The notes below the pieces were generated by a model, which saw nothing but the letters and a program-made list of their open reading frames with translations, made no database searches and had not been told where the DNA came from. A DNA stretch of 64,000 nucleotides from NCBI GenBank assembly GCA_963751455.1, contig CAVVUN010000015.1:1088001-1152000 (forward strand). Reading direction: 5' to 3'. The position numbers and the translations under genes were made by a program. This document shows, piece after piece, positions 40,583-61,605 of this stretch; position 1 is the first letter of the stretch; every line of letters starts with the position of its first letter. The stretch is from Nitrospirota bacterium (lineage in GTDB: Bacteria > Nitrospirota > UBA9217).

Positions 40583-42510
40583 TTATTTCTGGTTGTTCAC
40601 GGGTTTAAATTTGCCGTCTTCCACTTTTATAGGAAAAGTATTTTTCAGCGCTTCCCGGTTTCCGTCGAACGTCGTCAAGCCGGAGACTCCCGGGTAGTTT
40701 TTCAGCGCCAGAAGGCCGTCTCGCACCGCTGCGGGTGTTTCTTTATGCTCCTTGAAAAGCGTGAAAACCATCATGGCCGCGTCGTAAGACTGGGCCGAGA
40801 GAATGTCCGGTTCTTCACGGTAGGCGGAACGGTAAGCTTCGACGAAGGCTGTCACAGCCGGATCCCTGCTTTCAGGCAGGAAGCCGTCTACGAAGACCGC
40901 TCCGTCGGCATGGCGGCCGGCGCGCTCGATCAGGTCCGGAGCATGCCAGTTGTCCGATCCGATCAGGGCTACTCCTGTTGACGTTGTAGAACGCGAGCTG
41001 GGGGATAAGCAGTCCGACCTGCTCTGCATAGCCGGGAAGATAGAGCGCATCGAAGCCGGGCGCATATTCGGCGAAGAGCTTCTTTCGCTCCGCATCGTCC
41101 TCCGGGATCAGGATTTTCCGTGAGCGCAGATCGATCTCCATAAGCTTGCGGATGTAGGGGCCGAAGTCCTTGGTTTCCGGCGGATACGCTATGGTTGCAA
41201 GGATCTCAGCCTTCCGTTCGAGTTCCCGGGCGAACAGGTTCGAGAGGTCCTTGCCATAGGGTTCATCCGGATACAGCAGCACGAACCGGTTAAGCTTCTG
41301 CTGGAGAGCATACTGCGCGGCCGCTCGCGCCTGGCTATCGATCGTGAGGGCGTTCCTGAATATCCAGTCGCTTTTCTCGGTAAACCCGGAACGGGACGCG
41401 GCTGGGCGGATTACCGGGATCCTTATGTTTGCGAGAAGCGGGGTTATCGCTTCCTCATCTTTGGTTGTGACCGGCCCGATAACCGCGGTCACCCCTTTTG
41501 CCGCGAGTTCTTGAAGAGCGGCGACCGTTTTTTCCGGAAGACCCTCCGTGTCCTTGATTATTATATCCACCCGGTTCTCAGGCTCGGCCAGATTGTGAAC
41601 ATGAACAGCCAGCTCGATGCCCTTGAGCACGCGGTCTCCGAAGAACGCGAGAGGGCCTGACTGGGGCAGGAGCGCGCCTGCCAGGTATCGCGGCGCGGTC
41701 AGCTTCGAAGTGGCCTCGTTCAACAGCATCTCGCCGCGGGTCTTCTCCGGAGTGCGCCGGGAACCGATCGAGAAACTCTTTGCTCACGACGATCGCCTCG
41801 CGGTATTTGCGCTGCTCCAGCATGACCGCGGCAAGCCGCAGTCGTGCGATGTCCGATGGATAGGCGCTCCCCTCAGAGAGGTTCTTCAACTCATCTTCAT
41901 TCAGGCTCTTGTCGACGAGTTCACGCATCCTGTCGCGGTAGCCGGCCCGCTGCTTCTCGTTCGCGGCCGTTTCGGCAAGGTAGCTGTATTCCTTCACGGC
42001 CATGAGATAGTTCTTTTTAAAGGTATAGGCAGCGGAGAGCATCTCCGAGATATGCCGCAGTCGCTCTGGATCGGCGATTTTGCTCCGGTCCTGAAGGTTG
42101 GCGGCCGCGAGGTCGTATTCCTTGAGCTCGAAATAACAGGTACCGAGCTTGTATTTGGAATCGGGAATAAGCGGGGAAGCGGGATATTTTTCGATGATGT
42201 CTTTGTAATAGCTGAGGGCCTGCCGGAAATCGCGCTTCGTCAGGAATATCTCTCCCTTGAGGTGCAGCGCCCTGTCCGCATGCCTGCTTTTCGGGTACAG
42301 CTTGAAGAACGCGTCCGCGGCTTTCACGGCCTGCTCATACTGTTTTTTGGCAAAGAGCGCCTCTGCCTGTTCGATCTGGACGCGGGCGCTTTTTTCCCAT
42401 TCCGGTTCGGGCGGCAGCGACGCGGCGCAGCCCGCCAGTATAATCGTGGATGCGGAGGCGATGAGGAACAGCACAAATGTTATAGTCGAGATGATGCGCC
42501 TGAACGGCAT
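40583..42510 (-). CDS. TPR (BamD-like) plus LppC-like periplasmic-binding-fold lipoprotein, split by two +1 frameshifts
   Basis: Lipobox LAGC, TPRs, GALLPQSG, VIGP, SYDAA; frames join near 41750 and 40978. Confidence 0.8.
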
Positions 42511-42604
42511 GTGGTTTACCCCGTTAGAGAAAGCTGTGATCTTTTCAAGGCAGCTAATACTTCGTGAATTGATGCACTGACGGATTCATGCTTCGATCCG
42601 GTTT

Positions 42605-42990: not shown

Positions 42991-43048
<58 letters not shown>

Positions 43049-43066
<18 letters not shown>

Positions 43067-43567
43067 AAATAAAACAAAGCTGGTCATTCTTGACCGGCTT
43101 TTTTTATTTCAGGAAGGGGATCGAACCAAAGGGAGTTTGAGGGAAAGGATTTCACTCATGTTTCGGGAGAGGCCACGAGAGGGCAGGCCCTTTCGTGAAG
43201 CGAAGCGCGTGAGATTCCCCTTCTCGTCCACCAAAATAAAACAAAGCTGGTCATTCCTGACCGGCTTTTTTTATCTCAGGAAGGGGATCGAACCAAAGGG
43301 AGTTTGAGGGAAAGGATTTCACTCATGTTTCGGGAGAGGCCACGAGAGGGCAGGCCCTTTCGTGAAGCGAAGCGCGAGAGATTCCCCTTCTCGTCCACCA
43401 AAATAAAACAAAGCTGGTCATTCTTGACCGGCTTTTTTATTTTCATGAGAGGCGATCGAACCAAGGGAATTTGAGGGAAAGGATTTCACTCATGTTTCGG
43501 GAGAGGCCACGAGAGGGCAGGCCCTTTCGTGAAGCGAAGCGCGTGAGATTCCCCTTCTCGTCCACCA
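43049..43567 (+). repeat. Three tandem 167 bp tRNA-linked repeats
   Basis: TCCCCTTCTCGTCCACCA at 43049, 43216, 43383 and 43550; each unit has a terminator-like hairpin and an antisense T-arm copy. Confidence 0.93.
43077..43105 (+). terminator. Rho-independent terminator after tRNA-Ala (recurs in each repeat unit)
   Basis: AAGCTGGTCA-TTCT-TGACCGGCTT followed by a T run. Confidence 0.7.
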
Positions 43568-43938
43568 TAATTTCTTCCTGACAACTTCAAAAACATCCGC
43601 CTCGCGCAAAGCCGCAAAGTTTATAAACCTTAAATCAGTATTAACCATGGATGAACACGGATATTTCCGAACTGATTCGTCTCACACGGACGTACCGATT
43701 GACATAAAAATAGTTGTGTAAAGTATAAATAGAAATTACTTTACACAAACTCTGTTGTGTCGGCTTGCCCATTATGATGGCATATTGTACGGCGTTCCTA
43801 ATCCCGAAGTAAAGAAAAGGACATTGAACTGGCTGAACGCCGAATGGAAGAATGGATGCGGAGGCATCCGTCGGTTTGACCATTTTTTCTGCAACATCTA
43901 GAAAGGCGAGGTAAATCCATCTGCGAGCAATATAAATG

Positions 43939-45270: not shown

Positions 45271-45809
45271 TTGCCCCGTTAGAGAATCGTTTTTATTATC
45301 AATGAGATTGCGCATTTGTAAATGGTCGCGAAGACAATTCCTGACCGGGAAACTCGTGATCTCTAACGGGGTGAAGGATTAATAGAAGTCGGGGAGGATC
45401 ATGGCTGATTTACCCCGCTTAGAGGTCCCTTTTACCGTGAATTAGTAGGCGTCAGTCATTCTTGGCGGATAGATCGATCGTAATTGAGAGAGGGGCGGTT
45501 TCTTGACCTCTAACGGGGTTTAGAAACAATCCAGAAAAAGATCCTCTCATTTACCCCGATAGAGATTTTTGCCCGTGCCATAGTGGAGCCGATACCATCG
45601 AAAGCGTACGACTGCGTTCGTTTGCCTATCAAGAAAAGACCGTTGAATCTCACACGGGTGAACGGAACGAGCGTGATTGGCAGCAATTCCACGATCCTTC
45701 ACCCCGTTAGAGATAGCGGCGCAAACACAACGGGTGCATAATCGGCATCGATAGCAAGGATAACGTATATCCGTCACATCAAGCAGGTCTGAATCTCTAA
45801 CGGGGTTAA
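45271..45809. repeat. Array of four inverted-repeat-bounded ~100 bp cassettes with unique interiors
   Basis: CCCCGTTAGAGA..TCTCTAACGGGG-type units at 45274-45371, 45413-45518, 45554-45658 and 45702-45805. Confidence 0.88.
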
Positions 45810-45825
45810 CCCCTACAACGAGACG

Positions 45826-46100
45826 ATGCGTATGTACTATACGTATGTTTTGCAGAGCACAAAAGACGGTAAATGGTATACGGGATTTACAGGGGATCTA
45901 CAAAAACGCTTCAGCGATCACAACGCAGGTAAAGTTCCCGTAACCAAGAACCGTGGACCGTTCGAGTTTATTACGAGGCATGCTTGCACGAGCAAGATGC
46001 TACGGCGCGGGAGAAATACTTGAAGTCGGGGATGGGCAAGCGGTATGTGAGGAATCGGCTGAAGCGTTTTTTTATGGACAAGCCCTCTTTACCCCGTTAG
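45826..46100 (+). pseudogene. Small stand-alone GIY-YIG nuclease, frameshifted near 45968
   Basis: YTYVLQS..WYTG..LQKRFSDHNAG..RGPFE, then shifted frame YYEACL..AREKYLKSGMGKRY; stop TAG lies inside the next repeat. Confidence 0.85.
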
Positions 46101-46197
46101 AACATAATTAATCTCTAACGGGGCAAGCCTTGCAGTCCCGCAATCTCTCGCCTGATTTACCCCGTTACAGATTGTTCATCATCTGTAATGGGGAGAA
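46088..46197. repeat. Two short hairpin versions of the same inverted repeat
   Basis: TTTACCCCGTTAGAAC..TCTCTAACGGGGCAA and TTTACCCCGTTACAGAT..ATCTGTAATGGGGAGAA. Confidence 0.85.
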
Positions 46198-46209: not shown

Positions 46210-46365
46210 AAAGAACTGGCCGACATTTTCATCTTCCTCACCTATCTAAGCGAGGAATACAATATCGATTTATTGAATGAGGTCGAAAAGAAAATCGGCT
46301 TGAACGAATCGAAATACCCTGTGGAAAAGGCTAAAGGCTCGTCGAGGAAATACACTGAATTGTGA
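46210..46365 (+). pseudogene. 3' relic of a MazG-like nucleotide pyrophosphohydrolase
   Basis: ELADIFIFLTYLSEEYNIDLLNEVEKKIGLNESKYPVEKAKGSSRKYTEL*; no 5' half. Confidence 0.75.
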
Positions 46366-59717: not shown

Positions 59718-60415
59718 TTACTTATATCTTTTCTTCTTCTCCATCACCACCCCGACAATCCGATACTCGATGTCTTTATTCAAGACGATATCCTGATATT
59801 TGGGATTCAGCGGGTGGAGGACTCGGGCACTGTCGAATTTTTTGTACTGCTTAAACGTTGCCTCTTCCTCGTCGTTCTTCACGATAACGTAATCGCCGTT
59901 CTCCGCCCCTGCCCCGTAGCTGCAAGTAGGGCGATTCGAATCATTTGCGACAATCAGGTGTTGTACTCCCGCCAAATGCAGGGTTGAATAATCATGTGCT
60001 GCAACGGGGTGAACAGTAGGGCTGATAACGAGAATTTCGCCTTCCTTGAACTCCGGCTCCATGGAATTGCCCTTCACCCGGAGCGCGAAGTTGTGCTCTC
60101 CTTTAATATCGCTCTCGATCCATTCTGCTGCATCTTCTGTGTGGAATGATTCACCGGTTTCCGACCACTTGCCGGCAGCCACCTAGGATGTGACCGAGAT
60201 CTTACGCATCTTGCCGAGAGCGGCGGGCTCCACGTTTTCGAGAGGTAGCCGGTCTCTCTGAGGAACTCCTGAACGTCGGCGCGGTAGGCTGCCCCGATGC
60301 TGCCAAGATTCGAAGTCACGCCAGCTACGGGGTAAACATCACCTTGTCGAACGACGGGGCGGTCACGCCGTCTTCGATTTCCTTGACGAACGTGCGGGAA
60401 ACATGCGCGAGCTTA
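59718..60415 (-). pseudogene. HTH-S24 (LexA/CI-like) repressor disrupted by a stop, a frameshift and two repeat insertions
   Basis: HTH relic AKLAHVSRTFVKEIEDG; VAAG, VKGNSMEP, ATFKQ, LHPLNP. Confidence 0.8.
59909..60013. mobile_element. Dispersed ~100 bp inverted-repeat cassette inserted in-frame in the S24 domain
   Basis: CTGCCCCGTAGCTGCA..TGCTGCAACGGGGTGAA; CCCC to GGGG span is 98 bp. Confidence 0.75.
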
Positions 60416-60431
60416 GCGGGATAGGTTATGC

Positions 60432-60902
60432 CTATTTCTCTTTCCACATACGTGCATCGAAGACAAAGGGCATGGGATCGCTGATGCGGATTTTCTTAAA
60501 GTCACGGTGGCCGGGATTGAGCAGATAGTTCCAGCTTTTAGGAACCAGCACGGAGGGGACTCGGAAAACAGCCGTGTCCGCTTTTTTCGCCCATGCGGAA
60601 CCGATATCCTTTGTTGAATCCTGCGGCGGTTCGGCGGTCCAGTCATCAGGGAGATCGGCGCTTTTAAGCTTTTCAACAAGGACACTGTCCGGGATCTCGA
60701 TCTTAAAGTACACGAACTTGATATGAGAAGCGTCGAACCCCAAGTGAACGAACTTTTCGACCACGGACAGCGCCAGAGACTCGCTTGCGTAGATTGCCGG
60801 TATGCCCTGGTGATGCCATCGGCCGCTTACGCGGCGGGCCCCTTCGCCGGTAAATGCTTCCTTGGCGCGTTTTGCCTTATCCAGGCGCCACGCAGTGATC
60901 AC
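60432..60902 (-). CDS. RES domain toxin (NAD+ phosphorylase family)
   Basis: WR..GEGA..GRW..YASES..E..VH..VPS..NYLLNP.H. Confidence 0.92.
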   Translation of the reverse strand: MITAWRLDKAKRAKEAFTGEGARRVSGRWHHQGIPAIYASESLALSVVEKFVHLGFDASHIKFVYFKIEIPDSVLVEKLKSADLPDDWTAEPPQDSTKDIGSAWAKKADTAVFRVPSVLVPKSWNYLLNPGHRDFKKIRISDPMPFVFDARMWKEK

Positions 60903-61339
60903 GAAATGACCCCGTACTCAATGCGCCAGAGAAGGTCTTCGACCTCCTTTGATCCTGCCTCGGTATGCAGCAGATCAAGGGGCGCTTTGCCGCCCAAGCC
61001 CACCTGTCCCCGGCGCAGCCATTCCCTGGCTTTGTCCTCGTCCTCCAGGACCTCGCAGGCGATCGAGAATATCCTCGCCAACCGGTAAAGCCGGTCGCTG
61101 GCAATGGCCGACAGGCGCTGACCCGGAGAGTTGCGGACGCGGGCCAGAGTCCGCTCGCTTACCTCGATAATGCCGGCGAAAACGGGGAGGGGAAGGTTCA
61201 GCAGGCCCCGGACGTGGTTTCCCGCCTTATAGGGGAACCCTTCGCGGATGAGCTTGTCCAGGTCCAGGGTGCTTTTGATTTTGCGTCCAAGAGAGGTCTG
61301 GCCGCCGAGAACTGATACGATATTCTGTTCGGTAAACAT
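60899..61339 (-). CDS. Xre/MbcA/ParS antitoxin
   Basis: SERTLAR, SDRL, A.EWL, LGG.APLDLL..G..EV..LL.RIEYG; 4 nt overlap with the RES gene. Confidence 0.92.
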   Translation of the reverse strand: MFTEQNIVSVLGGQTSLGRKIKSTLDLDKLIREGFPYKAGNHVRGLLNLPLPVFAGIIEVSERTLARVRNSPGQRLSAIASDRLYRLARIFSIACEVLEDEDKAREWLRRGQVGLGGKAPLDLLHTEAGSKEVEDLLWRIEYGVIS

Positions 61340-61412
61340 GAAAGTGACCTCCTGTCATCTGGCATAATATTATCAGACAAATGGCAAGCTGTCAACTGAA
61401 ATAGGTGAAAAC

Positions 61413-61535
61413 TTACTTGTACCGCTTCTTCTTCTCCATCACCACTCCGACGATCCGGTATTCCTTATCCTTGTTCAGGACGATGTCGTTGAACTTGGGA
61501 TTGAGCGGGTGAAGGATTTTGGTATTGTCGTACCG
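61413..61535 (-). pseudogene. 3' relic of a second S24 repressor
   Basis: RYDNTKILHPLNPKFNDIVLNKDKEYRIVGVVMEKKKRYK*, paralogous to 59718-59850. Confidence 0.8.
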
Positions 61536-61605
61536 TTTACCCCGTTACAGTTCAATCTTATAGGCGCTAATGTTACGGTATTGCAGAAGGGGAGCGGATG
61601 GCTCT

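Follow-up and report, generated by a model that had tools for sequence, protein, structure and literature searches.

Short hairpin units inserted in genes of a Nitrospirota genomic island are probably miniature transposable elements moved in trans by IS1380-family transposases

A 64,000-nt stretch of a Nitrospirota genome (G000:C15:1088001-1152000 in our numbering, hereafter the window; GenBank assembly GCA_963751455.1, contig CAVVUN010000015.1) contains short units with CCCCGT..ACGGGG ends, some of them inside genes and others at the broken ends of truncated ones. An initial annotation took these units for mobile, recombinogenic cassettes acted upon by a small GIY-YIG protein encoded amongst them, and we asked what the units are and what moves them. 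We find that the insertions are real and the elements mobile, and that the units are miniature inverted-repeat transposable elements (MITEs). Their movement in trans is probably the work of IS1380-family DDE transposases rather than of the GIY-YIG protein encoded next to them. Throughout, G000 is the genome of the window (5.72 Mb in 15 contigs), C1, C2 and C15 are its contigs, and other G numbers are genomes of relatives. Relatives of the window genes are found in Nitrospirota / Thermodesulfovibrionales metagenome-assembled genomes (MAGs), and our comparison set comprised 36 genomes of the same family and 24 from other families of the phylum.

Two units, u1 and u2, interrupt a repressor gene, and five others form an array elsewhere in the window:

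59718..60450, minus strand: XRE-helix-turn-helix (HTH)/peptidase S24 repressor pseudogene, copy A, with the N-terminus missing, a 1-nt deletion, an in-frame TAG and two MITEs
59908..60013, minus strand: MITE u1 with its flanks; unit at 59912-60009, flanking 4-mers CCTG and TGAA (plus strand)
60290..60336, minus strand: MITE u2; 41-nt unit at 60292-60332, with 47 nt replacing 12 nt of the HTH coding region
45274..46123, no strand assigned: cluster of five CCCCGTTAGAG-type units (45274-45371, 45413-45518, 45554-45658, 45702-45805 and 46092-46123)

The first of these, u1, is 98 nt long and has CCCCGT../..ACGGGG arms that pair at 11 of 13 positions. It had been read as adding ~34 codons to the S24 domain, and this was borne out: together with 4 further nt it forms an in-frame insertion of 102 nt (34 codons). 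By Pfam, the S24 domain of copy A falls into two stretches with the insert between them, and in a search of the 60 relatives' genomes the copy A query was found as residues 2-57 and 92-154, which are contiguous in the relatives' DNA. DNA alignment showed the 102-nt insertion to be missing from all six same-family orthologues. It was likewise missing from 58 of 58 site-spanning tblastn alignments (60 further loci), which have a gap opposite residues 58-91 and at most seven residues there. Contigs from the public runs X3 and X6 join 59907 to 60014 by TTCG alone, and this junction is the empty site of the orthologues. The fraction of the sampled words present in any one run was at most 0.13, and the contigs compared are those of relatives at 85-99% likeness.

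At the u2 site, 47 nt stand in place of the 12 nt (Q-L-L-R codons) of intact orthologues, a net gain of 35 nt that shifts the frame, and X1 and X9 public-run contigs carry intact HTH sequence past 60289. The 41-nt unit thus interrupts the HTH as originally described, and alignment with repressor orthologues, the check proposed for both units, found empty sites and intact orthologues lacking the u1 and u2 segments. The u2 unit folds with z -3.2. Copy A is also damaged in other ways: its N-terminus is gone, one nucleotide of an A run is deleted, which could be an assembly error, and TAG stands for TGG. The initial annotation had assigned all units to the same family. They are related, but u1 and u2 carry CCCCGTAGCTGCA / CCCCGTTGCAGCA arms and not the CCCCGTTAGAG type of the array, of which they are a sister subfamily; u2 is an internally shortened form of u1's subfamily.

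Empty sites were also found outside the window. In G000, a ~306-aa Y1-transposase-like gene with a C-terminal HTH (C15:218081-219129), one of ~20 paralogues, is split by a 106-nt unit. The insertion (C15:218698-218807; 106-nt unit plus 4 nt, 110 nt in all) is missing from five of five paralogues, whose uninterrupted site reads GTTCA followed directly by GTGGGG. This gene has a second insert of a different kind, ~87 nt, near 218410-218500. On C1, a 27-nt CCCCGTTAGAG-type mini-hairpin (705834-705873; L256) lies in frame in a large, intact gene for a repeat-rich protein, to which it contributes nine residues (TPLESSSLK); it is missing from eight of eight homologues, three of them paralogues and five orthologues. 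With empty sites in orthologues, paralogues and environmental contigs, the claim of mobility stands.

The family is lineage-specific, and its arms are commoner than chance predicts. The CCCCGTTAGAG sequence occurs 27 times in the 5.72-Mb genome compared with ~2.7 expected, and a looser pattern finds 36 arms, 10 of which lie in the 64-kb window. Most arms in G000 are paired into units of 32-114 nt whose interiors are unrelated, and a few share a 110-nt interior with three hairpins; across all genomes the units are non-coding and span 30-125 nt. Arms pair at 11-13 of 13 positions in 51 units, and five of the seven window units folded gave z scores of -3.2 to -5.6, the exceptions being u1 and the stretch from 61536 discussed below. 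We found the 12-mer ACCCCGTTAGAG in 21 of the 36 genomes of the family versus one of 24 genomes from other families of the phylum, with up to 40 matches per genome (G006) against 0-2 for the reversed control. Its counts are patchy within genera (0, 6 and 15 in genus g17), and units of the 110-, 41- and 30-nt types are also seen in other genera. Arm counts are 40 in G006, 20 in G001, 20 in G013, 12 in G020 and 8 in G011, an assembly of 10 contigs. At one G006 locus (L028, G006:C40:33300-34500, ~549-635), a 41-nt unit follows TTTA in the loop of the middle hairpin of a 110-nt unit, and the remainder of the host unit is absent; this is a nested insertion with adjacent loss that leaves a truncated unit.

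Could such hairpins be host regulatory elements, such as terminators, protein-binding sites or small RNAs, retained by selection and not mobile at all? The 12-15-nt arms are conserved in at least 13 genera while interiors vary, many units lie immediately before or after genes, and the 110-nt type retains its three hairpins across genera, all of which would suit this explanation. Against it, empty sites occur within coding sequence, one unit is nested in another, flank duplications are present (see below), and counts are patchy within genera. Rfam returned only the tRNA for the window and nothing for four loci with the 110-, 41- and 30-nt unit types. The empty sites contradict host regulation as the sole explanation, and we give it next to no credence, although some copies may have a secondary use to the host. 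The units instead have the properties of MITEs: they are non-coding and well below a length of about 300 bp, have terminal inverted repeats and multiple copies, and have empty counterparts of their sites. Bacterial MITEs are found in intergenic DNA and at times within genes, and rely on a transposase supplied from another locus.

Candidates for an enzyme encoded beside the units were sought and set aside. Clustering of neighbouring genes at 22 unit loci of G000 and 25 of relatives found no family in more than five loci and yielded no candidate for the enzyme. A pair of 413-aa neighbours turned out to be unrelated lytic transglycosylases, and the paralogues of a DUF4143 ATPase are not linked to units. 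What seemed a longer element at two G006 contig ends is merely a unit arm beside a gene fragment, presumably of a DUF1016-type nuclease. A 14-mer search of viral contigs gave 64 loci with one match apiece and no paired arms, which we took as chance. In integron attC sites the consensus is RYYYAAC ... GTTRRRY and cassette boundaries fall inside the site; here the order is reversed, with GTTAGAG first and CTCTAAC last, and insertion boundaries lie at the hairpin feet, so this reading was rejected.

The flanks of the units bear on which type of transposase is involved. We collected 51 non-redundant complete units from G000 and eight of its relatives. Identical 4-mers flank 24 of them, where permutation of the flanks gave an expectation of 8.9 +/- 2.3 and a maximum of 20 in 10,000. 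These identical 4-mers are of the TNNA type, and matched pairs include the rarer TTCA, TGAA, CTTA and TCTA. Hairpin ends are also a feature of repetitive extragenic palindromic (REP) sequences, of REP doublets forming hairpins (REPINs) and of IS200/IS605-type elements, which would be moved as single strands by a Y1 HUH transposase, inserting 3' of TTYA without duplication, such that the 4 nt past the right foot belong to the element. Compensating changes between arms, left flanks that are mostly TTTA or TTCA, unequal 4-mers at the Y1-like and S24 sites, and 33 PF01797 matches in the genome agree with this mode of movement, as does a recurrent CAG(G/C) right flank at both S24-gene units, u1 and u2, with CAGG also at L150. 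The CAG letters to the right of the C1 mini-hairpin are the host gene's own conserved G-Q-G codons. Identical flanks at 24 of 51 units versus 8.9 expected, rare variants included, argue against single-stranded movement. None of the 33 PF01797 loci in G000 is bracketed by units, and the lone adjacency involves the Y1-like gene into which a unit has inserted. Furthermore, G001, G013 and G020, with 20, 20 and 12 arms, have no PF01797 match, and the 50 of 61 genomes that do have one have it irrespective of arms. Movement by a Y1 HUH enzyme is in our judgement unlikely.

The identical TNNA 4-mers flanking the units led us to examine the IS1380 family of insertion sequences (ISs), of which ISEcp1 and ISPme1 are examples. 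We identified in G000 a 1.52-kb IS1380-family element, here named IS-A, with 10 near-identical intact copies (NF033539 profile, 227.6 bits against a cut-off of 180). Its transposase is encoded in an open frame of 492 aa, or 487 aa when counted from the first ATG. Its ends, CCTTGTAGTTGCATAAAC and CCTTAACGTTGCATAAAA, are CC-tipped inverted repeats, and eight of the 10 copies have identical 4-bp flanks (TCAA, TTAA three times, TTGA, TAAA twice and TTTA). The identical flanks of the units show the same 4-bp TNNA spectrum as these IS-A duplications. A second IS1380-like element is present in four copies with 5-bp duplications. Amongst these IS1380-family copies (e.g. L223-L228), unequal flanks are seen at two of the 10 of IS-A (4-mers) and at two of the four of the second element (5-mers), and at such near-identical copies could reflect either recombination between copies or carry-over at transposition.

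Units with ..G(T/C)TGCA arms have an GTAGTTGCA / GTTGCATAA core in common with the ends of IS-A. This group consists of the two S24-gene units and of C15:564496-564592 (flanks TTGA/TTGA), C2:275362-275486 (TAAA/TAAA) and C15:862994-863082 (TTTA/TTTA). Over positions 5-18 of the IS-A ends, the arms of C15:564496 and C2:275362 match at 9-11 of 14 positions and one u1 arm at 9 of 14, with the 99th percentile of a background of 11,314 CCCCG words at 8 of 14; the arms of C15:862994-863082, judged by eye, match at 10 and 10 of 14. We also examined 80 metagenome loci with relatives of the IS-A transposase, which yielded 46 non-redundant full-length elements with CC(C/T)NNNAGTTGCATAAA ends. The tips of these relatives include CCCC at six and CCCG at 13 of the 92 ends, and their flanking 4-mers have the form T..A in 64 of 92 cases, with 12 of the 46 pairs identical and 34 unequal; approximately eight of the 46 rows of this table look mis-registered and were kept in the counts. 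On the combined strength of arm likeness, the TNNA flank spectrum and the CCCG and CCCC tips of the clade, the S24-gene units are best read, from sequence comparison, as MITEs of the IS1380 clade to which IS-A belongs.

Several observations weigh against movement of the units by IS1380-family transposases. Non-identical flanks are found at 27 of the 51 units, including three units of the initial annotation and the unit in the Y1-like gene. At u1 the flanks are CCTG and TGAA and the empty form is a single TTCG, while the Y1-like site has TTCA/TAAA flanks and TTCA as its empty form. The whole of u1 folds no better than shuffled sequences (z -0.68). Unit tips are CCCC and those of IS-A CCTT, and the three remaining arms of the S24-gene units score 7, 7 and 8 of 14, in the background range. 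The main-family CCCCGTTAGAG arms match the IS-A ends at only 5-6 of 14 positions, which is background level, and no full-length element with CCCCGTTAGAG ends was found in G000, at the IS1380 loci of relatives or at the 80 metagenome loci. Nor does NF033539 follow the motif. Three of 10 same-family genomes with at least four arms have a match, one of them over the cut-off; G006, G001, G013 and G011 have none despite 40, 20, 20 and 8 arms; and G027 and G034 have 23 and 15 matches with one and zero arms. Short-read MAGs often lose multi-copy ISs, yet G011, which lacks a match and has 8 arms, is assembled into 10 contigs.

The background-level likeness of CCCCGTTAGAG arms, the lack of an IS1380 element with CCCCGTTAGAG ends amongst relatives and the 80 metagenome loci, and the want of co-occurrence with NF033539 would also be expected if the main family, including the array and an arm at 42515, were moved by a different DDE family that makes a 4-bp staggered cut and lies outside the sample, with the link to IS1380 confined to the S24-gene subfamily. 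On the other hand, the two subfamilies have the same architecture, CCCC tips, TNNA flanks and size classes and occupy the same island, and IS1380 ends in the IS-A clade vary widely past the CC tip. We regard two separate sources as a minor possibility. No transposase was bracketed by long-range CCCCG-tipped inverted repeats of 0.5-6 kb in G000. The initial annotation had held that repeats tracking a DDE transposase would speak against its nuclease proposal; the flanks and the arm likeness of the S24-gene units do point to IS1380, a DDE family, but IS1380 genes do not track CCCCGTTAGAG.

If the units are IS1380-dependent MITEs, a transposase of the IS-A type would bind the unit arms, cut the unit out and paste it at a 4-bp staggered target cut. 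The CCCCGTTAGAG units of the array would then be a sister MITE family whose own transposase lies outside the sampled genomes. According to PMC9330008, IS1380-family transposases use surrogate ends, move adjacent DNA and recognise ends loosely.

The unequal flanks invite a further, more speculative proposal. When piggyBac is excised it carries its TTAA along; by analogy, IS1380-clade elements and their MITEs might carry the 4 nt of the donor site to the new one, and with a degenerate TNNA target such carry-over would be visible as unequal flanks. Flanks are unequal at 27 of 51 MITEs, at two of the 10 near-identical IS-A copies and for 34 of the 46 full-length elements from metagenomes, and read TTCA/TAAA at a site whose empty form has TTCA. 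Full-length IS copies thus show them too, and they might arise from the mechanism itself and not through decay. We hold this carry-over to be doubtful. In PMC10813416, the transposases of the IS1380 family are taken as prokaryotic outgroup to piggyBac. The unequal flanks of MITEs and full-length elements would be a cheap route to asking whether IS1380 transposes like piggyBac and, were the proposal true, a natural record of piggyBac-type chemistry in prokaryotes.

We next consider the GIY-YIG gene, which lies between the fourth and fifth units of the array, together with the features that adjoin it:

45832..46080, plus strand: small GIY-YIG gene, frameshifted; a bystander
46156..46197, plus strand: short hairpin unit (CCCCGTTACAG..CTGTAATGGGG), fold z -5.3, 12 nt before the MazG-like fragment
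46210..46365, plus strand: remnant of a MazG-like gene, its C-terminal part; 46210-46362 matches profile positions 37-85 of 85 only

The idea that the units are cassettes cut and moved by this nuclease draws on its position between two units of the 45274-46197 cluster, on a 31-nt unit ~520 nt from a GIY-YIG gene in G004, and on GIY-YIG matches being somewhat commoner in repeat-rich same-family genomes (9 of 10) than in repeat-poor ones (15 of 26). However, the gene is frameshifted and has a single close copy in the genome for ~30 units, and the 4-bp flank duplications of the units match those of DDE elements of the same genome. Within the family, its closest matches reach ~40% identity over 47 aa, a level generic for the fold, and G013 has 20 arms and no match. 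The repeat-rich relatives contain no close homologue of it. In G004 and G020 (L020, G004:C91; L022, G020:C223), two copies of a tRNA-Asp 3' end enclose an intact 83-aa GIY-YIG gene directly next to the tRNA gene, an arrangement that marks it as a separate mobile cassette and resembles that of a selfish cassette targeting tRNA genes. The GIY-YIG gene of the window looks like a separate selfish cassette sharing the island, and action by the linked protein, as first proposed, is not supported; we consider it highly improbable.

Whether the units promote rearrangement is a separate matter, for which the relevant features, besides the MazG-like fragment, are as follows:

61416..61539, minus strand: copy B, a 3' remnant (~41 codons, broken off at 61539) of another S24 repressor gene that has diverged from copy A
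61536..61550, plus strand: left arm on its own, TTTACCCCGTTACAG; 46156-46170 has the same sequence
42515..42534, plus strand: solo arm TTTACCCCGTTAGAGAAAGC, the 'End A' of 110-nt units; a lipoprotein gene has its start codon 4 nt away

Copy B belongs to the same gene family as copy A, with 74% identity over 43 aa. Its break at 61539 falls where the CCCC foot of the arm begins, at 61540, and the X9 contig has intact S24 sequence running on past this point. The initial annotation described 61536-61594 as a degenerate unit joining two truncated genes. The left arm (15 of 15 positions identical to 46156-46170) and the truncation of copy B are as described, but no right arm is demonstrable up to 61594 and the stretch does not fold (z +1.4). 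Lacking a pairing partner, it counts as a solo arm, not as a unit, and as the gene to the right has no Pfam match, truncation is evident on one side only. The unit at 46157-46197 does lie beside a truncated MazG-like gene, at a distance of 12 nt and with only profile positions 37-85 of 85 remaining. These two fragments and the 12 nt lost at the HTH are in keeping with the units being recombinogenic, but the evidence is suggestive only. Together with the truncated G006 unit, they fit deletions or the use of surrogate ends, either of which would have accompanied transposition.

The solo arm at 42515-42534 was correctly placed 4 nt upstream of a start codon, where its GGGG might serve as a ribosome-binding site. 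The adjoining TPR/YfiO-type lipoprotein gene (41578-42510, minus strand) begins with ATG at 42510-42508, a start with which its signal peptide agrees. Other units of the 110-nt type lie 15-70 nt from the starts of unrelated genes.

Comparison with known repeats places the units amongst bacterial MITEs. Like the Correia elements of Neisseria, they have terminal inverted repeats but no coding capacity, are short and occur in multiple copies, and part of them have the matching flanks expected of short target duplications; they differ in their 4-bp TNNA flanks in place of TA, their CCCC tips, largely unrelated interiors, length of 30-125 nt and the unequal flanks of half of them. CC-tipped inverted repeats and A/T-rich duplications of 4 or 5 bp link them to IS1380 ISs, as seen in copies from G000 and relatives, but the units have no transposase and only the ..GTTGCA-armed subfamily resembles the ends of an IS present here. 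Rickettsia palindromic elements, ~100 nt long, lie in frame inside protein genes and add a peptide segment. The 34 codons added to the S24 domain and the nine added to the intact C1 gene recall them, in an unrelated host clade and with unrelated sequence; since the S24 host gene is otherwise a pseudogene, it makes no case for a tolerated protein insertion. With REP/REPIN sequences and their REP-associated tyrosine transposases (RAYTs), the units have in common that they are locally clustered, lineage-specific hairpin repeats whose arms are more conserved than their loops. They differ in having no unit-bracketed Y1 gene, in their flank duplications and in occurring in genomes without PF01797.

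Read as MITEs, these unusual inverted repeats become mobile DNA of an ordinary sort, and an attractive link to the GIY-YIG gene for which support is lacking falls away. For the annotation of these Nitrospirota genomes, it means a MITE superfamily that splits genes (a repressor and a Y1-transposase-like gene), adds in-frame peptide segments (nine codons in an intact, surface-protein-like gene), enters the 5' leaders of genes and marks decaying islands. At the level of titles and abstracts, we found no description of IS1380-derived MITEs in the literature, and the pairing of MITEs with IS1380 may merit a short description.

The island that holds the S24 repressor locus has its edge at a tRNA gene (42991-43063). 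It contains the DUF4143 ATPase gene, the inverted-repeat unit cluster, the small GIY-YIG gene and the MazG-like fragment, followed by a helicase / DUF1156 methyltransferase / DUF499 block, the XRE-S24 repressor gene and RES-Xre and HicAB pairs. Units may have piled up in this tRNA-linked defence and toxin-antitoxin island because insertions would be tolerated there. One of the toxin-antitoxin pairs lies between the two S24 gene copies:

60432..61339, minus strand: RES toxin / Xre-MbcA-ParS antitoxin pair

This pair overlaps the truncated 5' end of copy A, which suggests that it came with, or displaced, part of a repressor gene. Between 46366 and 59673, genes for an SNF2-type helicase, a UvrD-type helicase, a DUF1156 methyltransferase, an NTP_transf_8 protein and a DUF499 protein resemble a phage-defence island. 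At 42991-43571, three 167-bp repeats lie in tandem behind the tRNA gene; all three end with a copy of the tRNA 3' end and look like scars of repeated integration or excision at the island edge.

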